Shown here piece after piece: positions 2,621 through 36,567 of a DNA stretch of 37,702 nt; the stretch's first letter is position 1, and every line of letters begins with the position of its first letter. Under the pieces are notes generated by a model, which was not told the origin of the DNA, made no database searches, and worked only from the letters and a program-made list of their open reading frames with translations. Location of the stretch: IMG/VR virus record IMGVR_UViG_2681813232_000007. One strand, 5' to 3'. A program made the translations under genes and the position numbers. The DNA is from a virus. Its lineage: Duplodnaviria > Heunggongvirae > Uroviricota > Caudoviricetes.

Positions 2621-2732
2621 AACTGAAGTTGCCCTGAAAATGAAATTTTTTTGCACAACCGCAGAACTTTTCCGCAGGGCATCAGTCTTAATTAGTGCCA
2701 CTGCTTTTCTTTGATGTCCCCATTTTGTGGAG

Positions 2733-2775
2733 CCCATCAACCCCGCCATTTCGGTTCAAGGTTGATGGGTTTTTT
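2733..2775 (+). terminator. intrinsic terminator-like hairpin (probably ybjL terminator, near prophage right junction)
   Basis: cccatcaacc (2733-2742) pairs with ggttgatggg (2760-2769), followed by TTTTTT (2770-2775). Confidence 0.45.
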
Positions 2776-2855
2776 GTTGCCTGAAATTTAAGCTGTTTAA
2801 AATCATGATGTTAGAAACACTGTTTTTTAACGATGGCGACAAAATGGCGGCAGCG

Positions 2856-8304: not shown

Positions 8305-8820
8305 TCAGAGGCCGAGGGCGTTGCGGTGCGCTTCCATCAGGTCCACACCGTCCACAATTTCCACCATGTTGATAAGGTCCACTTCATAGAGCACCTCACC
8401 ATTGATGGTCAGCTTCGCGTAGCTGTTGGTACTGGTCACTTTGGTGGTGTTGCTTTCGCCCGTCTTCCACTCGCCGGAATCCACTTCTTTGTGACGTCCA
8501 CGCACGACAAGCTCCACGGCCTGCACTTCCCCGGTATCGTCACGCTGAATAGAGCCGGTAAAGCGCAGCTGGATGCCATCCACCGTGGCTTTACCCATCT
8601 GTTTAAACAGCAGCAATTCAGTACCACCAATGGAAAATTCTGTGTCCAGCGCACAGTCATCAAGCCCCAGATCCACATCCACCGCACCCGGCATTCCGCC
8701 GCCGCGATACTTCTCATATTTGCGGGTAAATTTCGGCAGCGTCAGCGACTCAACGATCCCCTGCCAGTTGTTCCCGTCGTTAAACAGGTTCAGGTGTTTT
8801 AATTTGCGTGGTAAAGCCAT
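8305..8820 (-). CDS. FII: tail tube protein FII
   Basis: 171 aa, size and position match P2 FII. Confidence 0.88.
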   Translation of the reverse strand: MALPRKLKHLNLFNDGNNWQGIVESLTLPKFTRKYEKYRGGGMPGAVDVDLGLDDCALDTEFSIGGTELLLFKQMGKATVDGIQLRFTGSIQRDDTGEVQAVELVVRGRHKEVDSGEWKTGESNTTKVTSTNSYAKLTINGEVLYEVDLINMVEIVDGVDLMEAHRNALGL

Positions 8821-8829
8821 GTTGTCCCC

Positions 8830-10002
8830 TTACGCGCTGACCTGGCTGGCGAAATTCACCAGGTACTGATCGGTGATGCGCTGACGCAGCATCAGGTTTT
8901 CAAGTGGCGGCACTGGCGTGTAGTCGTAGTCGATGGTGAGTTTTCCGGCTTTCAGCGTGTCTTTGTCGTTCACCGACTCATCCAGCCAGCAATCACCACC
9001 AATGAGATAGCCCTGACTGACCAGGCTGCGCATTTTGGCGCGGATACCTTCGATAATGTCGCGGGCCAGCGACGGGTTAAGCGGTTTATCCACCGCCCAC
9101 ATGTGTGCTTCTGCCATCGTGTCCATCAGCACCTGCGCCGTGCGGGTGTAGTTTTCGAAGGCAAAGAGCGGGTCATCACTCAGGCAGCGGGAACCCCAGA
9201 AGCGGAAACCGTCTTTACGCACAAGCGTGGTGACGTCGTTCTGGTTCAGCAGACCTGCATCGGTTGCCGGGTCCTGCAGATCCCAGAACACATCTGCAGA
9301 AATTCCGGTGATACCGTTCACGCCCACGTTGGACAGGCTTTTGTGCCATCCGGTCTGCTCGTCAATTTTGGCGCGCAGACCAAGCGCACGGGCGGTGGCA
9401 TATGCCGTTGCTTCGGCATTCAGCACCGTGTCCCAGCCAGTAAAGTCAGGCCAGATCAGCATCCCTTCGCGCTGGCTGAAGTTTTCGCGGTAAGTGATCG
9501 CCTCCTGCACTGTCTTGCAGCCATACGCTGACAGGTAAGCAAATCCACGCAGGCTTTGCGCCACGCTCAGCAACTCAGTAGCTACCGCCTTGGTGTCGTG
9601 GCCTGGCACGCCGAGAATGCGCGGTTTAACGCCGAGCTGTGACTGGGCAGATAACAGGGCTTTCATACCTGTTTTTTTACCTTCAGCAGTCACTGCGCCG
9701 ATGATATTGGTCGTGGTTTCGTCTTCCGTTTCACCCTGCGGCACACGCACAACAATGGTCACGGGTTTTGCCTGGTCAGCGATGGCATCCAGCGAACGGG
9801 CCAGAGTACCTGACTCACCCGCTTTACCGCTGGCAGTCAGCACATCAGTGATCAGTACGGGTTTATTAAGAGGAAACATTTTTGCATCGGCATCATCGCC
9901 CGTGCAGACCATACCCACGATGGCGGTGCTCACCGTGGTAATAGATCGGGTGCCTTCGTTGACTTCAACAACGCGCACCCCGTGGTGGTAATCCTGAGCC
10001 AT
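8830..10002 (-). CDS. FI: contractile tail sheath protein FI
   Basis: 390 aa, size and position match P2 FI. Confidence 0.9.
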
Positions 10003-10144: not shown

Positions 10145-10711
10145 TCAGGGGGATTCATTGCTCTTATTTGCCGGAAATTTTCTATAAATGGTAGAAACGC
10201 CTACATCAAAAATCAGTGCAATACGCTGTCTTGATTCTCCGGCCTCGAGTAAACGCCCAATCTGTGCCCACTGTTCGGTGGTCAACTTAGGACGGCGTCC
10301 ACCTACTCTGCCTTTGGCACGAGCTGCAGCCAGCCCTGCCATGGTATGTTCAACTATCAGTTCGCGTTCCATTTCAGCCAGGGCCCCCATGACATGAAAA
10401 AAGAAACGGCCCATTGGGGTGCTGGTATCAATACTGTCAGTCAGGCTTCGGAAATTCACGCCACGCTGACGCAACTCTTCTATCAGCGTAACAAGATGCC
10501 GCATACTGCGCCCCAACCTGTCCAGCTTCCAGACAACCAGAGTGTCTCCTGCCGATAGTGTCCTGAGCAGCTTTTTCAGCCCCGGTCTGTCGGACTTGGT
10601 GCCACTGATTTTATCCTCAAAAATCCGCTCACATCCCGCACAGTTCAGTGCATTGCGTTGCAAATCGGTGTTCTGGTCATTTGTTGACACGCGTACATAG
10701 CCAATAAGCAT
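10145..10711 (-). CDS. serine recombinase, DNA invertase (Gin/Pin/Cin/Hin family)
   Basis: MLIGYVRVSTNDQNTDLQRNAL... with catalytic Ser in the YVRVSTxDQ motif and C-terminal HTH (GVSTIYRKF); near-identical by recall to Mu Gin over the N-terminus; ORF-track N-terminal extension to 11026 rejected. Confidence 0.9.
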   Translation of the reverse strand: MLIGYVRVSTNDQNTDLQRNALNCAGCERIFEDKISGTKSDRPGLKKLLRTLSAGDTLVVWKLDRLGRSMRHLVTLIEELRQRGVNFRSLTDSIDTSTPMGRFFFHVMGALAEMERELIVEHTMAGLAAARAKGRVGGRRPKLTTEQWAQIGRLLEAGESRQRIALIFDVGVSTIYRKFPANKSNESP

Positions 10712-10738
10712 GATCATCCCCCTGAATAAAAACCGGAG

Positions 10739-11215
10739 ATGATGCCAGTTAGCCGTTATCTCTGCATTTTCATAAACGTTCAATTGGGAGAAGCGGCAAA
10801 ACGGGATGTCGGAACCGGTAATAATCAACTCCCGGACATGTCCGCATTTGGTATGTCGCGAAACGGACAAACTGCCTGGGATATTCTCCCAAATGGTATG
10901 ATTCGACAGGCTGGCACTGTGACACTGACACCAGTTGGTAACTTCAACGCGCAGGTGCTTGGTGGGGTGACGTACTACACCCATTACTACAGGGTTAATT
11001 TCCCCAGACAATTCCCAAATGCACAAATAGCAACGCTGGCAACACTAGCGAGTTACAGCTATTCGACCCAGGCAACAATGGCCGGAAAATCACTGGCAAC
11101 GCATCGCGATACTGATTCTGGCACTGACGTATCAAGAACGCGATTCACTGTGGCGTATACGACACCCAATCTCGGCGAAACACCGACACTGCATTTTGAA
11201 GCAATAGGATACTAA
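10739..11215 (+). CDS. alternative tail-fibre C-terminal variable segment (Sv'-like, promoterless until inversion)
   Basis: opposite orientation to H, homologous to the H variable-region start, ends in ...EAIGY like H ends ...IALGY; the 5' end of this ORF upstream of the crossover is probably not translated in this orientation. Confidence 0.6.
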   Translation: MMPVSRYLCIFINVQLGEAAKRDVGTGNNQLPDMSAFGMSRNGQTAWDILPNGMIRQAGTVTLTPVGNFNAQVLGGVTYYTHYYRVNFPRQFPNAQIATLATLASYSYSTQATMAGKSLATHRDTDSGTDVSRTRFTVAYTTPNLGETPTLHFEAIGY

Positions 11216-15886: not shown

Positions 15887-17146
15887 ATGTTTAGATTATC
15901 TAGTGTCAAGATTGAAGGTTTTTGGGGAAGACTAAATGCATCATGTTCATTTAATGAAGATGTAAATATTATTATTGGTCGAAATGGGACCGGTAAAACA
16001 ACCTTTATGAATATTCTTCACTCAGTTCTGGCATTAGAACTCGAATCACTAAATGAGAATAGTTTTGATAATGTAACAATAAAAATAAAAGAAGGAAGCA
16101 AAACTAAAACAATAAAAGTTGTGAGTAAATTTGACATAACTAAAGCTTTGCCTACGTTTGAATATACAATTTCTAGAAAGAAATATATTATCAGATCCTT
16201 TGAAGATCGTAGACTACCTATATATATGAGGAGAAAATATCAGGAAGACGTTGAAAAACTTAAGTTAGAGTTAGATAAATTAGTTGCTTTATCTTCTCTA
16301 TCAGTTTACCGACTTAGAAGCGGTGAAGATTTTGAAATCAGAGACAAATATGGCTCAAAATTAATCAACCCTGTTGATTACCGATTAGAACAATTATTGC
16401 AGAACCTAACAAAATATCAACTTTATTTATCACAAAGAGCTCGTGATGTTTCTGCAATATTACAGAAAGAGGTTCTTGCTTCTATTCTTTATAGTAAAGA
16501 AGATGGTATCGATGACACATTTAACTTTTCTTTTGATAAAGAAAAAGAACGTAGAAATTTAATAGCTGCATATTCTCAGCTTGGAGCTTTTGATAGTGAT
16601 GTCAGAAAGAAGATTAACTTTCACGTTGAATCTATTGCCAAAACATTTGAAGAATTACGACTTGCAGAAAAAAATAACAGAAATATTTTAAATGTAGATT
16701 ACAGATCATTTGAGGCATTACGAAAGACGCAAAGAATTATAAAGATGTCTTTAAAATCCGAGGAGAAAATAAAAAACATATTTCTTCCTATAAATCTATT
16801 TTTAGAAACATTACATGAGTTCATAACCGATAAAAAATTTAATTTTATCTCCGGTGAGCTAGTAATAGAAAACGAGCATGGGCCGATTAGCCATAGTAAT
16901 TTATCGTCTGGTGAAAAACAGCTATTAATTCTTTTTATTGAAACTTTGCTACAGCAAAACAAACCTTTCATCTATCTTACTGATGAACCAGAATTATCGC
17001 TACATATTGCATGGCAACGAAAAATAATACCTGCAATCAAACAACTTAATCCTAATGCGCAAATTATCGCCGCTACGCATTCACCAGAAGTGGCTTCTAA
17101 ATATCGAAATGCAATCTTTGATATGGAGAAATTGGTTCATGGATGA
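15887..17146 (+). CDS. ABC-type ATPase, candidate anti-phage protein (AriA/AbiLi-like)
   Basis: 419 aa; Walker A GRNGTGKTT (residues 31-39), signature-like LSSGEKQ, Walker B-like FIYLTDEPELSLH; AAGGA Shine-Dalgarno upstream; strongly AT-rich compared with flanking phage genes. Confidence 0.7.
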   Translation: MFRLSSVKIEGFWGRLNASCSFNEDVNIIIGRNGTGKTTFMNILHSVLALELESLNENSFDNVTIKIKEGSKTKTIKVVSKFDITKALPTFEYTISRKKYIIRSFEDRRLPIYMRRKYQEDVEKLKLELDKLVALSSLSVYRLRSGEDFEIRDKYGSKLINPVDYRLEQLLQNLTKYQLYLSQRARDVSAILQKEVLASILYSKEDGIDDTFNFSFDKEKERRNLIAAYSQLGAFDSDVRKKINFHVESIAKTFEELRLAEKNNRNILNVDYRSFEALRKTQRIIKMSLKSEEKIKNIFLPINLFLETLHEFITDKKFNFISGELVIENEHGPISHSNLSSGEKQLLILFIETLLQQNKPFIYLTDEPELSLHIAWQRKIIPAIKQLNPNAQIIAATHSPEVASKYRNAIFDMEKLVHG

Positions 17147-17990
17147 TTTCCATTATTCTGCCGAAGCAGAAAATGTAATGAATTTATTTTACCAAGCTGA
17201 AGCCATGGTTTATGTTGAAGGCCCAGATGATATTTGCTTTTGGGAAATCATCTTTAATAAAGCTAGTTCATTAAAGGTTGAAATCAAAGATGTTGGCGGC
17301 TGTGAAGAATTAAAAAAATATATTGATAGAGTTACTGATGAAGATCTTCAAATTATAATTGCATGTGATGCAGACTTCACTACATTTGAAAATGAGGAAA
17401 ACGCTGATAGTCGCATTGTAAAAACTTATGGGCACTCCATCGAAAACACGTTTATTGACAAAACAGGCATATATAAGGCAATAAAAACTCTAGGAAAATT
17501 ACCTCAAAAGATAATGAACGATGTCAACGTCGATTCTTGGACAGAAGACTTTTATACCAAAATGGAACCCCTAATAAAACTTGATATATACAATCATATT
17601 TATAGAAAAGGCATTTCAGTTATTGGTGACAGTGCAGATCGTTTCATGAAATCTAGAAAATCAAATGAAATTTGCGAGCAAAAAATCACGAGTTACAAAA
17701 ACACCATCATTGAAAAATTAGGTGTGGAACCAGATAACATCGATTCATCTTTCAAATCAAAATCGATAGAATACAGAAAGTGGCTTAGAGGTCATTTTCT
17801 TTTTTCTGCAGTACATAGGTACATTAGCACAACTGCAGAAAAAAATGGAAAAAAAGTATCCTTATCATATGAATCATTATATTCCAATTTAATGAATACA
17901 TTTGAATCCAATTTTACCAATACTCATATTGAGTTTAATCATTACCACGAAAAAATTAAAGCCATAAATATGCCACACGAAATGAAATAA
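17139..17990 (+). CDS. DUF4435/TOPRIM-like putative nuclease, candidate anti-phage effector (AriB/AbiLii-like)
   Basis: start set at MDDFHY (ATG at 17139) overlapping the upstream stop as ATGGATGA; conserved acidic motifs YVEGPDD and IIACDADF consistent with a TOPRIM Glu plus DxD; AT-rich. Confidence 0.65.
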   Translation: MDDFHYSAEAENVMNLFYQAEAMVYVEGPDDICFWEIIFNKASSLKVEIKDVGGCEELKKYIDRVTDEDLQIIIACDADFTTFENEENADSRIVKTYGHSIENTFIDKTGIYKAIKTLGKLPQKIMNDVNVDSWTEDFYTKMEPLIKLDIYNHIYRKGISVIGDSADRFMKSRKSNEICEQKITSYKNTIIEKLGVEPDNIDSSFKSKSIEYRKWLRGHFLFSAVHRYISTTAEKNGKKVSLSYESLYSNLMNTFESNFTNTHIEFNHYHEKIKAINMPHEMK

Positions 17991-26814: not shown

Positions 26815-27969
26815 TCAGCTTATTTGACCTAATAATTCTTCCGCATATTTTTTATCACTATCCATCCGTTGCTGAACAGCATCCCTAAGATGCTCTTTCA
26901 ACTTATCAGGATAATTTTTACATGCATCAATCAATTTTGTTCGTAAAAGCTTAGCACCATTTACAATGGTGGCATAAGCTAAAGCATCAGCTAACTCCTT
27001 AACTTTCACATCATCAGTAATGATAGAAGGGATTGAAAAAACGTAATATTTCGCAACATAATTTTGCGTATACCAACTATCATATAACAATCCAATTAAA
27101 GCATCACCAAGATCACCTCTTCTTTTAAATTTGCTACCAAATGTATTACCCCATGTTCCTATAGCTCCTTTGGTCGCATCAGAATAGAAATCCAAATATC
27201 CTTTTTTGCACTCTTCGATGATTATATTTTCCATTCTAATTAAAACATCATCAGGAAGATTTCTCCATGCGCTCGGCTTAATTATTCTAAATACATTAGC
27301 AAACTCAACATTATTGCTAGCCTTGCGTAACTCATCACCTAGCAACCGCATTGCGGCTTTTTCTTCCTCTCCTGAAAAGCGTTGGTTTATTGCTTTGAAT
27401 ATAGAATCAATTTCCTTGGTTGGCCTTTCATTAAAGCGAGAAATTAAACTTTGGAAAAAATCTAGTAGTTTTTTTTCTGGAATTTGTGATATTAAAGCTT
27501 CTGCATAATCAGAATTATTTACAAAGTGAACCTCATAAATTCTTTCAAGAATTGCTGTGTAATCGAACTCAGCAACATCTCTTTTTAAATACTTAATAAA
27601 AGTATCCAACATGATCAATATTCTCATGCAGGAATCTTCTGTATCAGGGAAATTGTCATGTGTCCTTGGATTTCTTATACACTGATAGTAGCCTCTTAAT
27701 AGTGCTTCAAATCCGCGCTGTTCGTCCTGCTCTGATACAGATTGAAGACTATTAATTTGGATTCTAGGTGATTGTCCACCCAAAACAGTACCAACAAGCT
27801 GAGCCCCATCCCCTTCACATTGCCCTTTTTCACGCAGCAAAGTTGTTAGATATTTGGTTCCTGCAAGTATTGCATCCGAAAATTGGTTGTTTTCCAGCCT
27901 ATTACCAATCGCTTCAACTAATTCCGCATCGAAATTATTTGTATTAAAGTTATTTTTTACAAACATCAC
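26815..27969 (-). CDS. orphan cargo protein with N-terminal HEPN-like RNxxxH motif, candidate abortive-infection RNase
   Basis: 384 aa, AT-rich; motif IRNPRTH (R99-H104; codons 27658-27675); GGGGAG Shine-Dalgarno upstream of the ATG; sits between the portal gene and the cos-like site. Confidence 0.6.
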   Translation of the reverse strand: MMFVKNNFNTNNFDAELVEAIGNRLENNQFSDAILAGTKYLTTLLREKGQCEGDGAQLVGTVLGGQSPRIQINSLQSVSEQDEQRGFEALLRGYYQCIRNPRTHDNFPDTEDSCMRILIMLDTFIKYLKRDVAEFDYTAILERIYEVHFVNNSDYAEALISQIPEKKLLDFFQSLISRFNERPTKEIDSIFKAINQRFSGEEEKAAMRLLGDELRKASNNVEFANVFRIIKPSAWRNLPDDVLIRMENIIIEECKKGYLDFYSDATKGAIGTWGNTFGSKFKRRGDLGDALIGLLYDSWYTQNYVAKYYVFSIPSIITDDVKVKELADALAYATIVNGAKLLRTKLIDACKNYPDKLKEHLRDAVQQRMDSDKKYAEELLGQIS

Positions 27970-28052: not shown

Positions 28053-28071
28053 CTCGTATCCCCGCCACGCC
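28053..28071 (-). other. cos-like cohesive-end site (186/P2 type)
   Basis: minus strand reads GGCGTGGCGGGGATACGAG; the first 13 nt match the remembered 186 cohesive end GGCGTGGCGGGGA; located between Q and the tum-like operon as expected. Confidence 0.45.
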
Positions 28072-28116
28072 TGCCCGCTTTATGTAGTGGTTTTCATGCA
28101 CCTGCATGATCTACGC

Positions 28117-28142
28117 AAAAGCCCGCCAGTTCTGGCGGGCCT
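28117..28142 (-). terminator. intrinsic terminator of the tum/dinI-like operon
   Basis: perfect hairpin gcccgccag-ttc-tggcgggc (28121-28140) followed on the minus strand by TTTTG. Confidence 0.7.
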
Positions 28143-28275
28143 TAGCAAAAACGATCCTCAAACGATCATGCGATCTCATGCGGCATAGACATGCACTACA
28201 GAGCTAACGCCTCGCAAGGGCTCGTTGTTCAACCTTGCTGACGCCAGAAGCAAGTTCAGACGCCAGCAACGTTTC

Positions 28276-28509
28276 TTAATGCAGCCAGCTGTCGTCTTCC
28301 CACACCTTCTGCATAATTTTCATCACTTGTTTTCTTTCTTCGTCCAGTTGCAGTCCGGTTAGTTCCACACCGTTAGAGCTACCTTTGCGAATGCGAATTA
28401 CCGTTTTGGGATACAGGGGGCGCAGATTGCGGTAAAGCTCGGATTCAAGGGCGTCCAGGGTAGACTGGCTAATCTTCTGCTCTTTATCGATCATTATTTC
28501 AATGCGCAT
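28276..28509 (-). CDS. DinI-family protein (C-terminal module of a split Tum-like antirepressor)
   Basis: start set at MRIEIMIDKEQ (ATG at 28509, GAGGTG upstream); 77 aa, alignable by eye to E. coli DinI (MRIEV...WESADDW versus MRIEIM...WEDDSW). Confidence 0.8.
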   Translation of the reverse strand: MRIEIMIDKEQKISQSTLDALESELYRNLRPLYPKTVIRIRKGSSNGVELTGLQLDEERKQVMKIMQKVWEDDSWLH

Positions 28510-28751: not shown

Positions 28752-28767
28752 CTGTTTATATTTACAG
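28752..28767 (-). promoter_or_regulatory. LexA operator (SOS box) overlapping the promoter of the tum/dinI-like operon
   Basis: CTGT-N8-ACAG: cACTGTTTATATTTACAGta matches the TACTGTATATATATACAGTA consensus at 17/20; minus-strand -35 TTTACA (28788-28793) and -10 TATACT (28766-28771) with 16-nt spacer. Confidence 0.8.
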
Positions 28768-28861
28768 TATATAATAATCTTACTGATGTAAAACGTTTTT
28801 TTACGTTCATCAGCCTGATATGCCTGGTATTATAAAGAGCACGAATTGTTAACCCGCGTAA

Positions 28862-31273
28862 TTAATACAGGTTCCGCCACTGATCATCTTCTTGCAAACG
28901 CTGGTTCCGATAGAAGATACGCAGGCCTGCTCCTGACGGAATACTGCCTCCGCGAAGGAGTAAATCGACCTCTTTCTCGCTGCCATCAAATCCTCTGGAC
29001 TTCAGCTCATACACGAGCTGCAGTCGCTGATGGTCTGTAATTCGCTGTTTGTAGTCTTTACGCCGTTTCGGTTTCACCAGGCGTAACCTTGCAGCCAGTT
29101 CCCGGCGCTCTTTTTTGTTCATACTGTGCAGGTAATCGTGCAACTCCTTGTCATCCATGCTGGTAATGTCCGTTCTGGGGTCCCCATCAGCTGATTTATC
29201 TTTCTCCTGTTGGTTCAAATTTTCAGCAAGGGGACAGTTATTGCCACGAGTCCAAGGGGCGCAAGCGCCCTGGGCTGCCGCCTCCTGAACGTCAACGGCT
29301 TTACGAACCATTTTCCACTTCACTGCATGAGTGCAGATCTTGCCCTCTGCAATGGGTGACCAGATGCCATAAATACGAATGCCGTGATCGCCATAGGCGG
29401 TCGGCTCTTCGTTGATTTCATAAGCGGTTCTGATGAGGTGATATTTACGGGGAACCAGTACGCCGCCCTGCTTCATGATGTAGGTGGCAAAACAACCAGC
29501 ATCAGCAGCAGCCAGAATGGCATCAAGACGCGGGTTATCCAGTACCGGCGCACCTGCTTTTTTGTCACCCTGTTGCCTTGCCGCCTGACCAGCCAGCAAG
29601 CGAAGTTCACGGTAAGCCTGACGCCCCGGAATACCAAAGAAGCGGAATTGCTGAACACGATGCAGAGACGCCCAGGCATTCACGTATTCAGCGTTATCAC
29701 GCAGAGATTTACCCGTTTCCTTGCTGATCTCGCCAGCCAGACCACGACCGTCAATGTTCTTACTGATATATTTCGCGATGTAGCTTGTCGGCGTTCCTTT
29801 GCGCGGGTTAATCAACTCAGACTTAAAGCGCGGCCCAGTGTTATTGCCCAGCTCCTCGCGGTCTTCACGGATGGCAAACTTACGCAGTAATGCAGTGATG
29901 GCACGGCGGTCTTTTTTGCGCATGAAACACAACAGGTGCCAGTGAACTGTGCCATCATGATGCGGCTCAGCCACCCGCACGCCATACCAGCGCAACCCGG
30001 CTTTGTGCATCGCCTTACGAAATGCAGCAAACATGCCGACCAGATAATCGCTGCTTTGTCTTACCGTCGCGTTTGTCCAGGTCGGGTTTGGTCTGCCGTT
30101 ATTTAGCGTGGAATGGAAACGCGACGGACAGGTGATAGTGTAGAAAACGGCGCAGTCACCGCGCATTTCCGCGATAAGCTCCAGACCTTTAACACAGGCC
30201 ATCATCTCATTGCGGCGATGCGCAGGGTTGCTGCTGCTGGCGTTTACCACATCCTCCATGTCCAGCGTGTCGCCGTCTTCGTTCACCAGTTCATGAGAAC
30301 GGAAAAACTCCAGCGACTTACGGCGCTGCTCACGTTTATGCATCACGGCTTCATAGCTGACATAAGGAGATGCTTTTTTGCTGACCAGGCAAACAGCGCG
30401 CAACTGCTCTTCCCGCCATTCGCAACGCATCTTCCATAATTTCCGATACCACCAGTCGGCGCACAACATACGCGCCAGCGAACCCGGAATGAGTTCATAG
30501 GGCACGGGTTTACGGCGGTTTCTTTTCCGACGGAGTTGCTCAAACGCAGGTGGGATGACATCCAGACGCAGGGTTTCCGCTGCCACCTTTTCCCATGTCT
30601 TGCGGATTTCTTCTGGCTTAACGTCATCGGTGGCATACAAATCACCACAAGCTGCATCAAGGCACATACTCATATGCGCAGCTACCAGGGTGGACAGGCG
30701 TTTCACCTGATCCTGACTCATTTCAGGCAGGATCAGCAGGCCGTCCAGCCCTTCATGGCTTGCCATAAAGCGAAAAGATGCAGATAGCTGACTGTCGCGT
30801 ACATGCTCCAGTCGTTCCAGACATGGCTTAATCGTCTCACGTAAATAGCGGGAATAAGCCTTTGGCCTGCCCAGGCTGCTGAAGTATTCAATACGTTGCA
30901 TCAGCGGCTTGCTGATATTGGAAGGCTGGGCGTTGACGTCCGCCAGAATGACCATGTCTGAATTAAAACGCTGCTGCTCATGCGCCAGCTTTGCCCGGCT
31001 AATGAGCTTATCCTGCTCCATTTCGCGCTGGACAGGATCACGTGATTCATTAAAGAAATAACGCTCCCAGACCTGATCACTCAGTGCCTCGCGGCGCAAC
31101 TGTTCCTGCTCGTTATCGGCAGCGTACAGAGTGATCAGGTTTGAAAGCGTAGAAACCGGCGCAACTTCCGCCGGGTCCAGATAAGGGTTAATGGCCTTTT
31201 TCGGGCTGTTCCATGAGAATGCTGCGGCAGCCTCGTTAAAGCCGCAGCACTTGTTCATATCGGCATGACTCAT
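28862..31273 (-). CDS. A: replication initiation protein A (rolling-circle nicking endonuclease)
   Basis: 803 aa, size and position match P2/186 gpA; tandem His motif WHLLCF; start overlaps dam stop. Confidence 0.88.
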
Positions 31274-32127
31274 GCACGTACTCCGTACACGGCAGAACTA
31301 TCCACGCCACGCGAATAATCAAATCCCATCCAGCAGCGCGGCCCGGAAACAGCAATGATTTCTGTTGCTGATTTACCCTCGCCAGCTGCCACACCGATGC
31401 TGCGTTTTACCTTGATATAGTGGTGAGTAAAATTGCGATACAGCGAACGGATCAGGGATGTGTCACTGTTAGAAACAATGACCGGATGTCCTTCTGATGA
31501 CCGATGTTCAAGAACGGATGCCAGGTGATACTGGTCATCTTCAGTGAAACCATCAGTGTGATAGCCGGAAAACGTACCGTCATATGGCGGATCGCAATAC
31601 ACCACATCTCCCGCCTTCAACATCGCCAGCGTTTCATCAAAGCTGGCGCAGATAAACGTTGCTCGCTGGGCTTTTTCTGCAAATGTGCGAAGTTCTTTTT
31701 CAGGGAAATACGGATTTTTATAATTACCGTAGGGAATGTTGAAATGCCCGCTCTTGTTATAGCGACATAAACCACGGTAACCGTGACGATTGAGATACAG
31801 GAAATATACCGCTTTCATGAAATCAGTAATTTCAGTTGAGCAGTTAAACTCCTGCCTTATGTTGTAATAAGCCACCTCCCTGTTTGCGATCTCAAATAAA
31901 ACTCTGGCGCGAGATATAAACGATTCACAATCAGCGGCAACCTTTTTATAGAGGTTGATTAAATCAGGATTAATATCCGCAACCAGATAGCTGGGATAAT
32001 CCGTTTCCATCATCACAGCACAGGAACCCGCGAAAGGTTCAACCAGTCGCGGGCCAGCAGGAAGGTATTTTTTCAGTTCTGGCATAATGGCGGTTTTATT
32101 TCCCGCCCATTTCAGGATAGTGCTCAT
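31270..32127 (-). CDS. dam: DNA adenine methyltransferase (Dam family, N6-adenine)
   Basis: start set at [11 protein letters not shown] (ATG at 32127, GGAGG upstream); motif I EPFAGS and motif IV DPPY; long stretches alignable to E. coli Dam (FLYLNR.GY.GLCRYN..G.FN.P.G.YK.PYFPE). Confidence 0.85.
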
Positions 32128-32351
32128 ACAGCACCTCCGTTGTAATGTTTGCCTTTCAGTTCTGCGATTTCCTGACAGGTAATGCAAAGCTGCACTCCCG
32201 GAATGGCGCGGCGTCGTGCTGGCGGAATTGGCGCTTCACATTCAATGCAAAGTACGCGTGACACGCCCGGTGATTTGGCACGGGCTGCACGGATATGGCG
32301 CTGGCGTTCTTCTTCAACGCGCTGCTGTACGAGATCCATTGCATCAGCCAT
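32124..32351 (-). CDS. TraR/DksA-family C4 zinc-finger protein
   Basis: 75 aa with CIECEAPIP...CITCQ (CxxC-N17-CxxC). Confidence 0.75.
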   Translation of the reverse strand: MADAMDLVQQRVEEERQRHIRAARAKSPGVSRVLCIECEAPIPPARRRAIPGVQLCITCQEIAELKGKHYNGGAV

Positions 32352-34244: not shown

Positions 34245-34273
34245 AAAACTGATACTAGGATCGCAAAAGAGAT

Positions 34274-34870
34274 ATGTCAACATCAAAGTACCCAAGTGAG
34301 ATCAAAATAAATCCCAATAAAGGTGGTAAGGCTGCGATTGAGCGATTAGTCGAAGCCTATGGCTTTACGACACGACAGGCTTTAGCTGATCACTTGGAAG
34401 TATCAAAAAGCACACTAGCGAACAGGTATTTGCGGGATACATTTCCTGCTGACTGGATAATCCAATGTGCTCTTGAAACAGGAACCTCCCTCAAATGGTT
34501 AACTACCGGACAAGGCCTTAAGCAAAGCTCGCTGACAGCAGCTACAGAAGAGCTTGTTAAGTTTCGCCTTGCCGCAGGCAAAATGATTGAAGACGGTTCA
34601 TATGTCTTCGATTCATCATTTCTTCCTGCAAACCTTTCATCACCAATTGTTGTTCAGGATGGACTCGTCACATACATTTGTGATCAAAAATTTTCTGAAG
34701 TACTTGATGGAAACTGGTTAATCAATATCGACGGAACCTATTCCATTCGAAAAATCACAAGGCTTCCTAAAGGAATGATTAAAATTACAACAGCAGAGAA
34801 TAGCTTTGAATGTGCATTTTCTGATATTGAAGTGGTTGCTTGTATAAGAAGTACAATAGTCTCGAATTAA
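34274..34870 (+). CDS. cI: CI immunity repressor (186 CI type)
   Basis: 198 aa; N-terminal HTH and motifs EAYGF, CALETG..L.WL.TG.G shared with 186 CI by recall. Confidence 0.8.
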   Translation: MSTSKYPSEIKINPNKGGKAAIERLVEAYGFTTRQALADHLEVSKSTLANRYLRDTFPADWIIQCALETGTSLKWLTTGQGLKQSSLTAATEELVKFRLAAGKMIEDGSYVFDSSFLPANLSSPIVVQDGLVTYICDQKFSEVLDGNWLINIDGTYSIRKITRLPKGMIKITTAENSFECAFSDIEVVACIRSTIVSN

Positions 34871-34890: not shown

Positions 34891-36567
34891 ATGAATTCAT
34901 TTGCCATCGTTATACTCTTATTAGCATTTCTCGCCCCTGTTCTAGCTGTAATATTATTTAAACAAAGTAAAAAACACAAAGCGGCTATAGATAACCTGAC
35001 AGCTAACAACATAGCCCTTTCTAACCAACTGATTGAAAATCAAGAAAAACTAGCACAGACCGTACGAGAATTATCAGAGCTTGAAGGGCGAGCAGCACCA
35101 TTGTGGCAATACGAAGAATTGCACAGCGCAGTAATGGATGCAGAGAATAAGATAAAAAATGCGGACTCAATAGCCAAGCAAAAAATAGATGAAGCCCAAA
35201 TTAAGGCGGCTAAAACAGTAAACGAAGCAAATTATCAAGCTCAGATGACAATAAGCAACGCTAATAGCGAAGCTATAGCAATCACCAAAGACGCTCGCGA
35301 TGCACGCCTGAAAGCCAAAGAACGTCTTGATAATGCTAATAATAAAGCAAATGAGCTAATCTCAAATGCTAATGACAATGCAGTAAAAATTATTTCTGAT
35401 GCAGAAGAAAGAGCAAAGGAGATTGCTGGTTCAGCATATGAAGCTAAAGAGTTTGCAGAAAAATATGAAGCAGTTGCAAAATCAATGAAAAATAAAATTG
35501 AAGGTTATGGTGATGAATGGATCATCCCTAACCGTAGTGTACTTGATGAGCTGGCAGAAAATTATGAATTTACAGATGCAGGCAAGGAATTACAAAAAGC
35601 CAGAGAGTTAACCAAATCATTAATAAAAACTAATAAAGCTGCTTCGTGTGATTATGTTGAGCAAAACAGGCGTAATACTGCCATAAACTTTGTTTTGGAT
35701 GCCTTCAATGGAAGAGTTGACAGTATTTTATCAAAAGTCAAACACAACAATTTTGGAAAACTTTCCCAAGAAATAAAAGATGCATTTCAACTAGTAAATT
35801 ACAATGGCTCTGCCTTTAGGTCCGCAAAAATAAGTGACATCTATCTTCAGGCAAGACTCAACGAGCTAAAATGGGGTGTAGCAGTTAATGAAATTATGCT
35901 CGAAGAAAAAGAAGAGCAAAGAAGGATTAAAGAACAGCTTCGTGAAGAGGAAAGAGCTCGTAGAGAATATGAAAAAGCGATAAAAGAAGCTGAAAAAGAA
36001 GAAAAAGCTATTCAGCAAGCTATAAATAAAGCAACGAAAGAACTTATGCTTGCAAATGAAGAACAACGCTTAGCTTTAGAGCAAAAAATAGCTGAACTAC
36101 AGTTAAAATATGAAGAAGCTGAAGCTAAAAATCAACGAGCTATTTCTATGGCTCAACAAACCAGATCAGGCCACGTCTATATCATTAGTAATATTGGTTC
36201 ATTTGGCGAAGATGTATATAAAATTGGAATGACACGCCGCCTTGAACCACTTGATCGTGTTCGTGAACTCGGAGATGCTAGTGTTCCTTTTTCGTTCGAT
36301 GTTCATGCGATGATTTATAGTGATGATGCACCATCATTAGAAAACCATCTGCATAAAGTTTTCAACGAAAAGCAGGTCAATAAAATTAACTCACGAAAAG
36401 AGTTTTTTAACGTAAATTTAAAAGAAATCAAATCAGTTATTGAAGACATGAACATCAACGCCCACTGGACAATGTTTGCAGAGGCGAAAGAATATAGAGA
36501 GTCTCTATCTATTGAGCAGGAGCGCAAAGCAGCCACTTCCGCCAACGATGAACTACATGTTGCTTAG
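34891..36567 (+). CDS. membrane-anchored coiled-coil protein with C-terminal GIY-YIG-like (T5orf172-type) domain; candidate anti-phage cargo
   Basis: 558 aa, AT-rich; N-terminal transmembrane helix (FAIVILLLAFLAPVLAVILF), long Lys/Glu/Ala-rich helical region, C-terminal GHVYIISN...YKIGMTRRLEPLDRVREL; inserted between cI and int. Confidence 0.65.
   Translation: MNSFAIVILLLAFLAPVLAVILFKQSKKHKAAIDNLTANNIALSNQLIENQEKLAQTVRELSELEGRAAPLWQYEELHSAVMDAENKIKNADSIAKQKIDEAQIKAAKTVNEANYQAQMTISNANSEAIAITKDARDARLKAKERLDNANNKANELISNANDNAVKIISDAEERAKEIAGSAYEAKEFAEKYEAVAKSMKNKIEGYGDEWIIPNRSVLDELAENYEFTDAGKELQKARELTKSLIKTNKAASCDYVEQNRRNTAINFVLDAFNGRVDSILSKVKHNNFGKLSQEIKDAFQLVNYNGSAFRSAKISDIYLQARLNELKWGVAVNEIMLEEKEEQRRIKEQLREEERARREYEKAIKEAEKEEKAIQQAINKATKELMLANEEQRLALEQKIAELQLKYEEAEAKNQRAISMAQQTRSGHVYIISNIGSFGEDVYKIGMTRRLEPLDRVRELGDASVPFSFDVHAMIYSDDAPSLENHLHKVFNEKQVNKINSRKEFFNVNLKEIKSVIEDMNINAHWTMFAEAKEYRESLSIEQERKAATSANDELHVA

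Follow-up and report, generated by a model that had tools for sequence, protein, structure and literature searches.

Organization of the dam locus

The window, by which we mean the whole 37,702-nucleotide stretch of phage DNA analysed here, carries on its minus strand a dam gene set between a TraR/DksA-like gene and the replication gene A (Table 1). The dam reading frame runs from an ATG at 32127 to a stop codon at 31270-31272 and encodes 285 amino acids, and the DNA of this interval is 100% identical to a gene annotated 'DNA adenine methylase' in the deposited record ON470620. A longer frame that opens with a TTG and reaches up to 32187 was ruled out as the gene; it is the ATG at 32127 that has a Shine-Dalgarno sequence and matches the deposited annotation. 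A sequence-only reading of this locus, which gave no strand, had set dam between replication gene A and a TraR-like gene and had noted an ATGA overlap at either end, and both points hold. Profile matches (PF01258, TIGR02419 and PF05840) confirm the neighbours, the gene A protein being 88% identical to Fels-2 gpA, and the overlaps are read directly from the letters: the dam start overlaps the TGA stop of the TraR/DksA-like gene at 32127-32124, and the gene A start overlaps the TGA stop of dam at 31273-31270.

Table 1. Features of the dam locus, the early region and the cos region in the window
Feature	Position	Strand	Basis or remark
dam	31270..32127	-	Product of 285 aa; orphan N6-adenine DNA methyltransferase (D12 class, Dam family), retron-Ec67 / Fels-2 STM2730 type
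Shine-Dalgarno GGAGG of dam	32134..32138	-	Read from sequence; 6 nt before the dam ATG, within the end of the TraR-like gene
Shine-Dalgarno GGAG of gene A	31281..31284	-	Read from sequence; 7 nt before the A ATG, within the end of dam
TraR/DksA-like C4 zinc-finger gene (P2 orf82 equivalent)	32124..32351	-	PF01258 (zf-dskA_traR) 3e-11; TIGR02419 above cut-off
Replication gene A, rolling-circle initiator endonuclease	28862..31273	-	PF05840 Phage_GPA 5.9e-128
pR-like early lytic promoter, TTGACA-17-TAGTAT	34252..34280	-	Consensus scan, 10/12 matches; putative function
cI repressor gene, 186-type	34274-34870	+	CI repressor domains; the pR-like promoter faces away
GATC-N7-GATC pair, candidate Dam substrate	28153..28167	-	Begins 96 nt upstream of the cos end; putative link to Dam
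cos cohesive-end sequence GGCGTGGCGGGGATACGAG	28053..28071	-	Homology: aligned to annotated P2 cosR and 186 right end

The order of genes from the repressor onwards (cI, pR-like promoter, apl-like gene, cII and, further down, the TraR-like gene, dam and A) follows the layout of phage 186, and the transcript that carries dam is presumed to start at the pR-like promoter (34280-34252). A simple consensus scan found no promoter-like site directly upstream of dam. The gene is therefore most likely part of a CI-repressed early lytic operon, as far as consensus scanning can picture its promoters. The slot that it occupies is equivalent to that of P2 orf83 and 186 orf84, which likewise lie between a TraR/DksA-like gene and A and overlap A, whereas the cargo of this slot in other P2-like phages consists of unrelated proteins (DUF5405, PAPS-reductase-like proteins, exonucleases and C5-cytosine methylases). 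This bears on the claim, made in the sequence-only reading, that dam is translationally coupled to the replication gene. The ATGA overlap stands, but its being special to Dam does not: in related prophages the gene before A usually overlaps A by 4 or 1 nt, and this is seen for Dam, PAPS-reductase-like, C5-methylase and DUF5405 genes alike, so that the overlap is a property of operon architecture and is not peculiar to Dam. According to the phage 186 record, A appears to be translated only when orf84, which lies upstream, is translated through to its end. As a possible enforcer of coupling, a terminator like tM1 of 186, placed just inside A, was considered and rejected; the 9-bp hairpin visible by eye at nucleotides 25-53 of A has no T-run, and a terminator scan called no terminator there.

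No restriction endonuclease was found among all genes of ON470620, which is identical to this prophage, or among the accessory open reading frames scanned with Pfam and PADLOC, in agreement with the sequence-only reading, in which no cognate restriction endonuclease was visible. The prophage has three accessory loci, namely PARIS AriA/AriB, a Hypoth_Ymh protein and PD-Lambda-1. It differs from the prophage of retron Ec67 in having no retron and instead a Hypoth_Ymh gene between cos and the portal gene. An Rfam scan of the whole window returned RybB only.

Distribution of the gene and its relatives

The dam gene is already well known as a common constituent of P2/186-type enteric prophages, in which it lies just upstream of the replication gene. 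At least 1000 contigs encode the identical protein, and copies of at least 90% identity, every one of them annotated as DNA adenine methylase, are present in 1239 of 5426 complete genomes of E. coli. The phage lineage is found in Escherichia, Klebsiella, Salmonella, Citrobacter, Pantoea and Erwinia, and the order TraR/DksA-like gene, dam, A recurs in 31 of 80 related loci. The first account of this type of Dam gene is reportedly that of 1990 for the retron Ec67 prophage, where Hsu, Inouye and Inouye are said to have found a 285-residue open reading frame 44% identical to E. coli Dam, and also three GATC sites close to the promoter of the retron. Our protein has the same length and shares 97% identity with a protein bearing the name 'retron EC67 DNA adenine methylase', and nothing substantial sets the two apart. 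STM2730 of Fels-2 (858 bp) likewise sits between a DksA-like zinc-finger gene and gpA, and a similarity to the Ec67 methylase is noted in its record; a prophage of K. pneumoniae Kp52145 has the same gene order as here (PMC7826664). Two sets of prophage methylases were set aside. M.EcoMIV of EC958 (PMC4659465), a prophage Dam homologue that is poorly transcribed in the lysogen, is a different gene (254 aa, in a Mu-like prophage), so that the evidence on its lysogen expression is not applicable to this dam. M.EcoGV and M.EcoVT2Dam (PMC6602927) were not taken as members of the clade; their copies of stated location lie in Stx2 prophages, and no P2-like term occurs in that paper.

Family membership and specificity residues

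Profile and structure searches place the dam product firmly in the Dam family. PF02086 matched over its full length (profile positions 1-253 of 253; 2.2e-75, 254 bits against a cut-off of 22), TIGR00571 'dam' matched at 4e-95 (318 bits, cut-off 115), the best PADLOC model was 'orphan methyltransferase' (oMTase, 1.6e-110), and the best matches in the PDB were E. coli Dam (3e-73, aligned over the full length; 2G1P, 4GOL and other entries), DpnM (2e-34) and T4 Dam (3e-18). These matches agree with the marks by which the gene had first been recognized as Dam-like, which are motif I (E30-P-F-A-G-S35), motif IV (D179-P-P-Y182) and long runs identical to E. coli Dam (LKWAG, LVEPF, ADIN, FLYLNR, GLCRYN, PYFPE, FAEKAQ and VVYCDPPY). 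The two proteins share the D12 class, DPPY, the F-x-G of motif I and D54, with a global identity of 45.7% (123/269). They differ in setting, E. coli Dam being encoded at a core chromosomal locus and the phage gene within a lytic operon. Against the housekeeping Dam equivalog NF008152 the phage product scored 287 bits, under the cut-off of 441, and judged by its sequence it is a separate phage subfamily, distinct from the core dam gene.

Residue conservation was assessed over 106 clade homologues of 70-97% identity. Under E. coli Dam numbering, K9, W10, F35, G37, D54, R95, Y119, R124, N132, P134 and Y138 were invariant in all 106; three of these, F35, G37 and D54, are F32 and G34 of AdoMet motif I and the acidic D51 of motif II under the numbering of the phage protein. 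Each residue of the catalytic DPPY, as well as L122 and N126, was kept in 103-105 of the 106. This near-invariance of catalytic and GATC-contact residues indicates purifying selection. The clade also departs from E. coli Dam at several points. Position R137, which we take to be a phosphate contact in E. coli Dam, is N or H across the clade (N here), five residues are deleted after DPPY, and the protein of this phage ends in 22 extra C-terminal residues with no counterpart in E. coli Dam. The last glycine of motif I (F-x-G-x-G; G39 in E. coli Dam) is a cysteine in 106 of 106 homologues (C36), and N120, which contacts a base in E. coli Dam (PMC4417163), is an arginine in all of them (R118 here). 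In E. coli Dam, GATC recognition and intercalation are the work of K9, Y119, L122, R124, P134 and Y138 (PMC4417163), and all six are kept in the phage protein as K6, Y117, L120, R122, P132 and Y136.

These differences mean that kinetics, flanking-sequence preference and even specificity could differ from those of E. coli Dam, and the low NF008152 score, the cysteine in motif I and the arginine at N120 are what could be said for a product that is inactive or that methylates a sequence other than GATC. We regard this as extremely unlikely. The residues for catalysis and GATC contact are retained across the clade, T4 Dam is active with a leucine (L36) in place of the same motif I glycine and a serine at the N120 position, and the 1990 paper (PNAS 87:9454), going by its title, credits the Ec67 element with 'Dam methylase functions'. 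Homology thus points most likely to an active, GATC-specific, solitary m6A methyltransferase. Other solitary phage GATC methylases offer parallels. T4 Dam (PDB 1YFJ) is of the same PF02086 family and shares the short loop after DPPY and the missing second glycine of motif I, but it is only 23% identical and belongs to a virulent phage whose cytosines are modified, and what it does in vivo is still unclear (PMC12707154). The homologues from P1, one annotated 'methyl-directed repair DNA adenine methylase' (H78) and the other dmt (H100), are about 35-37% identical to the protein described here.

GATC content of prophages with and without Dam

GATC content was measured as observed over expected counts across gene A and the 10 kb downstream of it, with dam itself left out, in 69 related prophages. 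The 28 P2-like prophages that carry Dam had a median ratio of 1.02, with values below 0.6 in 2 of 28, whereas the 41 without Dam had a median of 0.63, with values below 0.6 in 20 of 41 (Mann-Whitney p = 7e-6; Fisher p = 2e-4). Other four-base palindromes averaged about 1.0 in carriers and non-carriers, and a permutation stratified by gene A lineage retained the association of GATC content with Dam carriage (p = 1e-4). Over whole genomes the ratio was 0.19 in P2 (25 observed, 131 expected), 0.90 in Fels-2 and 0.82 in this prophage. GATC depletion was absent in the P2-like phages phiCTX of Pseudomonas and RSA1 of Ralstonia, hosts that are not known to have Dam.

The association is weaker than the headline medians suggest, and its cause could run either way. 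It is carried mainly by the P2-type lineage, so that shared ancestry is only partly controlled; within the gene A lineage of this phage there was none (1.01 versus 0.93, p = 0.49), and GATC content is normal in roughly half of the prophages that lack Dam. That carriers show no GATC avoidance while many non-carriers avoid it strongly fits an earlier suggestion that GATC sites left under-methylated harm enteric phages (PMC5014478).

GATC sites in the cos region

A search with the 19-mer of the P2/186 cos, allowing up to 3 mismatches, gave no match in this phage; by alignment, its cos end differs from those of P2 and 186 at 4 positions. Beside it lies a GATC-N7-GATC pair, with further GATC sites at 28172 and 28108, which makes four sites within 65 bp both here and in Fels-2, interleaved with TGCAT repeats common to the cos regions of P2 and 186. 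We considered whether the GATC sites at 28108-28172 might form part of a promoter for the Hypoth_Ymh gene and rejected this, as they lie in the cos region, upstream of a terminator-like hairpin. A link between Dam and the replication origin was likewise unsupported: neither this phage nor Fels-2 has a GATC within 60 nt to either side of the stretch that aligns with the P2 nick site.

The GATC pair is fixed. Among 41 related loci with a locatable cos it was found in 21, from different species, at the identical distance of 96 nt and with 11 different spacer sequences, and it is retained even in GATC-depleted genomes (L017, 0.42; L078, 0.45; L030, 0.59). Such constancy would be expected if Dam controlled packaging, by keeping the cos-region GATC sites methylated for a terminase that recognizes or cuts cos only when it is fully methylated. 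Phage P1 provides the precedent, with GATC sites clustered at the packaging site as here, a proven requirement for Dam methylation of pac, and a need for its own dmt gene in Dam-negative hosts (PMC12707154). The present case differs in being a conserved sequence pattern only, and one that also occurs in phages without dam: 9 of the 21 loci with the pair carry dam and 12 do not, so that the phage enzyme is not required for the existence of the pair, and host Dam would serve. Three Dam-carrying relatives (L015, L055 and L069) have no such pair, P2 and 186 package without it, and the pair could instead bind a protein or form part of the adjacent terminator. On this analysis, control of packaging appears unlikely as the explanation of the gene.

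Discussion

The gene structure, comparative residue data and GATC content presented here make it probable that this Dam is a GATC-specific, optional cargo enzyme that acts in lytic growth only and supplements a limiting host Dam on phage DNA. The gene would be one occupant of a variable slot upstream of A, within the early lytic operon of a P2-like prophage of the 186/Fels-2 type. Repression of the early promoter by CI would keep the gene off in the lysogen, and upon infection or induction it would be transcribed along with the replication genes and translated in register with the TraR-like gene and A by means of the stop/start overlaps and its own Shine-Dalgarno sequence. Host Dam is in short supply for multicopy or phage DNA (PMC5014478; bioRxiv 10.1101/2020.06.22.160242), and a phage Dam that tops it up would bring fast-replicating phage DNA to full GATC methylation. 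Such DNA could escape the un- or hemi-methylated state that is exposed to nicking by MutH and binding by SeqA, and a genome kept methylated in this way could hold its GATC content at a normal level. Methylation would also persist at the two invariant GATC sites beside cos, and progeny DNA would leave the cell protected from GATC-directed restriction.

Protection of this last kind might by itself be the purpose of the gene, with progeny DNA methylated in advance against MboI/DpnII/Sau3AI-type enzymes of the next host. Enterobacterales carry their own Dam, and the identified hosts all belong to this order; phage DNA should therefore be largely GATC-methylated already, and GATC-directed restriction should be rare among these hosts. 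Nor would anti-restriction explain why relatives without dam avoid GATC only in Dam-positive hosts. The placement of dam in a lytic operon and the spread of the phage lineage over many genera do agree with such a role, and orphan phage methylases that are expressed only on cell exit are a recognized strategy (PMC12707154), yet on balance we find anti-restriction quite unlikely to be the main function.

The sequence-only reading had offered protection from restriction, altered regulation in the host, and support of packaging or replication as functions for the enzyme. Among these three, a change of host regulation in the lysogen ranks as the least likely, because dam lies inside a CI-repressed operon and a consensus scan detected no separate promoter for it. 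Host reprogramming, or lysogenic conversion, would have Dam alter methylation-dependent host expression, for instance at phase-variable loci. The clade-specific changes at N120 and R137 could shift flanking-sequence preference or processivity, and over-produced Dam does have effects on the cell, such as triggering of the retron-Sen2 toxin through methylation of msDNA (bioRxiv 10.1101/2020.06.22.160242). In one E. coli methylome, however, about 99.9% of host GATC sites carry methylation already (PMC6602927), and any effect would be limited to a cell that is soon to lyse. We consider this role very unlikely.

The replication-associated role that we favor can be extended, more tentatively, into a joint proposal: that in P2-like phages of Dam-positive hosts, Dam in the slot upstream of A lifts a selection against GATC that would otherwise deplete their genomes of it, and that the fixed GATC pair of one cos type in this family makes packaging methylation-sensitive, as in P1. 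We regard it as possible, though doubtful, that both parts hold. If they did, the phage enzyme would serve replication and packaging as an accessory linked to how far phage DNA is methylated, and would not be an anti-restriction device.

As a gene, this dam matters little, being correctly annotated in thousands of genomes and belonging to a family known since 1990. [quoted passage not shown] Since close relatives with and without dam can be compared within the P2 family, these phages offer a natural experiment on that purpose. Phage Dam is also a documented trigger of retron defence (bioRxiv 10.1101/2020.06.22.160242), and its presence may therefore affect which hosts a phage can exploit.

Identity and prevalence of the prophage Dam

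The window holds a P2-like (Peduoviridae) Escherichia coli prophage with short host DNA at its left end, and across the dam region it is identical (100%) to Escherichia phage vB_EcoM-813R9 (ON470620). The sequence-only reading had described a Dam-family adenine methyltransferase with EPFAGS and DPPY motifs, set between a TraR-like gene and replication gene A with ATGA overlaps on either side. Every detail of that observation is borne out, and the only addition is the strand, which is minus. The protein covers the entire Pfam PF02086 profile (D12-class N6-adenine methyltransferase; 2.2e-75), scores 318 bits against NCBIfam TIGR00571 'dam' (cut-off 115), and matches, in order, the solved structures of E. 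coli Dam (3e-73), DpnM (2e-34) and T4 Dam (3e-18). EPFAGS occupies residues 30-35 and DPPY residues 179-182. Both ATGA junctions can be read directly in the sequence, and dam and A each have their own Shine-Dalgarno sequence inside the 3' end of the preceding gene. Against the housekeeping Dam equivalog the protein reaches 287 bits, under the cut-off of 441, and it is therefore a member of a phage subfamily rather than a copy of the host gene.

The exact protein occurs on at least 1000 contigs in a public collection, under the name 'MULTISPECIES: DNA adenine methylase [Enterobacteriaceae]', and its 90% cluster has 4038 members, one of which, 97% identical, carries the name 'retron EC67 DNA adenine methylase'. 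DNA matches were found in 1239 of 5426 complete E. coli genomes (about 1230 of them at 90% identity or more), and the annotation beneath reads DNA adenine methylase, TraR/DksA regulator and replication endonuclease in 15/15 among the matches listed. Near copies are present in 56 phage records, chiefly of Klebsiella phages, and homologues at E <= 1e-20 in 474. Fels-2 has STM2730 (858 bp) in the same place, between a DksA-like zinc-finger gene and gpA, and this gene is recorded as similar to the retron EC67 methylase. That methylase was reportedly described in 1990 by Hsu, Inouye and Inouye as a 285-residue reading frame 44% identical to E. coli Dam, with which the present protein (285 aa, 45.7% identical to E. 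coli Dam) agrees. As cited in PMC7826664, the 34-kb Ec67 element has a Dam methylase reading frame (Hsu, Inouye & Inouye 1990) and is a 186-related prophage (Dodd & Egan 1996); the same paper describes an identical gene order for a K. pneumoniae prophage. The gene is thus not new: it is a prophage Dam of the retron-Ec67 and Fels-2 type, well known and correctly annotated.

Specificity and catalytic residues

The protein was aligned with 105 homologues (270-295 aa, 70-97% identical), T4 Dam and an E. coli Dam sequence that matches the PDB alignment over residues 7-270. In E. coli numbering, K9, W10, F35, G37, D54, R95, Y119, R124, N132, P134 and Y138 are invariant in 106/106 clade members, and L122, N126 and the DPPY residues are kept in 103-105 of the 106. 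In E. coli Dam, K9 and Y138 contact the first base pair, L122 and P134 the third and R124 the fourth, while Y119 intercalates and N120 forms a base hydrogen bond (PMC4417163). Because these contact residues, N120 apart, are invariant or nearly so, the GATC-reading set is intact across the clade and under purifying selection. The clade differs from E. coli Dam in having R at N120 and C at G39 (both 106/106), N or H at R137, and a five-residue deletion after DPPY, a short loop that it shares with T4 Dam; the prophage protein also has an additional 22-residue C-terminal tail. T4 Dam, an active GATC enzyme, likewise lacks G39 and N120, so these two changes are no argument for inactivity. Judged from the alignment, the clade-specific changes could shift kinetics or flanking-sequence preference.

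A cargo site ahead of gene A

With an alignment of four gpA proteins, 80 loci of related prophages were fetched from various Enterobacterales species, and 31 of them carry a Dam gene in the variable site between the TraR/DksA-like gene and gene A. Elsewhere the site holds C5-cytosine methylases, PAPS-reductase-like genes, RNase T-type or Rv2179c-type exonucleases, DUF5405 or ASCH/DUF3850 genes, or is empty; in P2 it holds orf83 (DUF5405), and in 186 an exonuclease, a DUF5405 gene and the PAPS-reductase-like orf84. Cargo can be seen at 8745-9755 of locus L033, 8521-9441 of L071 and 8391-9608 of L069, among others, and C5-cytosine methylases, PAPS-reductase-like genes and 3'-5' exonucleases at times share the site with Dam. 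The site is a hotspot at which cargo genes for DNA modification and DNA metabolism collect.

This bears on the proposed translational coupling of dam to A. Real as they are, the overlaps are a property of the operon and not of Dam. A 4-nt overlap with A is the commonest arrangement for the gene that precedes A, both where Dam is last (10/18) and where a PAPS-reductase-like gene is last (5/9); orf83 overlaps A by 11 nt in P2 and orf84 by 4 nt in 186, where, according to the record, A protein seems to be translated only if translation runs through to the end of orf84. Dam is thus one DNA-metabolism cargo among several at a known variable site, and the coupling comes with the site.

The gene order (int, cI, pR-like promoter, apl-like, cII, small genes, DUF5347, DUF2732, TraR, dam, A) is that of phage 186, and a simple scan found no convincing promoter close upstream of dam. 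Such a layout would leave dam silent in the lysogen and have it made together with the replication proteins on infection or induction. RT-PCR data exist for a 'prophage Dam homolog' of EC958, M.EcoMIV (PMC4659465). That gene belongs to a Mu-like prophage and encodes another methylase, of 254 aa, and the data are therefore not applicable to dam.

Orphan status and accessory genes

The reading that no cognate restriction endonuclease accompanies dam agrees with the accessory ORF scan and with the identical deposited record, where none appears among all prophage genes listed; the best PADLOC model for the protein is 'orphan methyltransferase' (1.6e-110). The PARIS-type pair comprises AriA, a 419-aa AAA_15/AAA_21 ATPase, and AriB, a 283-aa DUF4435 protein, and sits between tail genes S and V, the P2 orf30 position. 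The Hypoth_Ymh gene gives weak PADLOC matches to PD-Lambda-3_B and an Aga HEPN model. Its place, with cos on one side and portal gene Q on the other, is the cargo position of ctx in phiCTX and the reported site of retrons Ec67 and Ec86. The PD-Lambda-1 gene is inserted between the cI repressor and integrase genes, and its product is labelled 'chromosome segregation ATPase' in the deposited record. The left end of the prophage is a few hundred bases away from rybB, which suggests integration next to this gene. The resolvase/invertase beside the tail-fibre genes, present likewise in Fels-2, implies an invertible host-range segment. Beyond the LexA-box-like sequence is a two-gene operon ending in a DinI/Tum-like gene, an arrangement resembling the SOS-controlled p95-tum module of phage 186.

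Coordinates of dam and of other features in the window
Feature	Position	Strand	Basis or remark
RybB sRNA gene	2700-2778	+	Rfam RF00110, 105 bits
Resolvase/invertase (Cin/Gin type)	10145-11026	-	adjoins tail-fibre genes
PARIS-type defence pair AriA + AriB	15887-17990	+	accessory ORF scan
Hypoth_Ymh-domain gene	26815-27969	-	accessory ORF scan
cos region with the GATC pair	28053-28172	-	
cos end GGCGTGGCGGGGATACGAG	starts 28071	-	alignment to annotated P2 cosR and 186 right end
GATC-N7-GATC pair (Dam sites)	28167-28153	-	begins exactly 96 nt upstream of cos end
DinI/Tum-like gene	28276-28509		last gene of two-gene operon
LexA-box-like sequence TACTGTAAATATAAACAGT	about 28757-28775	-	between gene A and two-gene operon
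Replication gene A (replication protein A)	28862-31273	-	downstream of dam; profile matches
dam	ATG at 32127 to stop at 31270-31272	-	ORF, 285 aa
TraR/DksA-type zinc-finger gene	32124-32351	-	upstream of dam; profile matches
pR-like promoter TTGACA-17-TAGTAT	34280-34252	-	simple scan
PD-Lambda-1 defence protein	34891-36567	+	558 aa; DUF4041 + T5orf172/MUG113; PADLOC 3e-120

GATC content and the role of the phage enzyme

All identified hosts are enterics, which possess their own Dam, so mere GATC protection by the phage enzyme seems redundant. P2 gpA is a rolling-circle initiator (annotated so in the 186 record), and phiX174 replicates by rolling circle too. Host Dam is limiting on multicopy DNA (bioRxiv 10.1101/2020.06.22.160242) and methylates phiX174 DNA poorly (PMC5014478), and the GATC avoidance of enterobacteriophages has long been ascribed to MutH at under-methylated sites (PMC5014478, which cites McClelland 1984 and Deschavanne & Radman 1991 for this explanation). 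For these reasons, GATC content was compared between related prophages with the Dam gene (carriers) and without it (non-carriers).

Gene A contains 9 GATC sites in the window and 13 in Fels-2, against 1 in P2 and 2 in 186, and the whole P2 genome has 25 where 131 are expected (observed/expected, o/e, 0.19), compared with o/e of 0.90 for Fels-2 and 0.82 for the window prophage. The depletion is often strong in those P2-like phages of enteric hosts which carry no Dam gene themselves. GATC is not depleted in the P2-like phiCTX (Pseudomonas) and RSA1 (Ralstonia), whose hosts are not known to have Dam or MutH. Over gene A and 10 kb downstream, with dam excluded, in 69 loci, median o/e was 1.02 in 28 carriers (2 below 0.6) and 0.63 in 41 non-carriers (20 below 0.6; Mann-Whitney p = 7e-6, Fisher p = 2e-4, permutation stratified by gene A lineage p = 1e-4); for the remaining fifteen 4-base palindromes the mean was about 1.0 in carriers and non-carriers alike. 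Within the P2-type gene A lineage, five carriers ranged from 0.81 to 1.26 against a median of 0.48 in 24 non-carriers (p = 0.002), and within the window phage's own lineage there was no difference (1.01 in carriers, 0.93 in non-carriers; p = 0.49). The contrast fits a phage Dam that lifts selection against GATC, with ancestry only partly controlled; cause and effect may run either way.

A GATC pair near cos

The cos end lies 45 nt past a terminator-like hairpin, and four GATC sites fall within 65 bp on this side of cos in both the window and Fels-2. GATC-N7-GATC stands 96 nt from cos in 21 of 41 loci with a locatable cos, from different species and with 11 different 7-nt spacers, and 88 nt from cos in one other; some of the 21 retain it in otherwise GATC-depleted genomes. 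Of 5426 complete E. coli genomes, 721 have the 121-bp element of this region. P2 and 186 lack the pair, P2 having GAGATTGCAT where the window phage has GAGATCGCAT. P1 pac requires Dam methylation, and in Dam-negative hosts P1 needs its own dmt gene (PMC12707154); by this analogy, a methylation-sensitive cos in P2-like phages is a fair hypothesis. The pair, however, does not depend on a phage Dam gene, as the 21 loci that have it comprise 9 carriers and 12 non-carriers, and cos methylation is therefore better ranked as a possible secondary benefit of the phage enzyme than as the reason for the gene. Most probably the enzyme serves to bring the GATC methylation of replicating phage DNA to completion in lytic growth. 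Beyond the original finding, two leads are of modest interest: the difference in GATC content between carriers and non-carriers, and the GATC pair close to cos.
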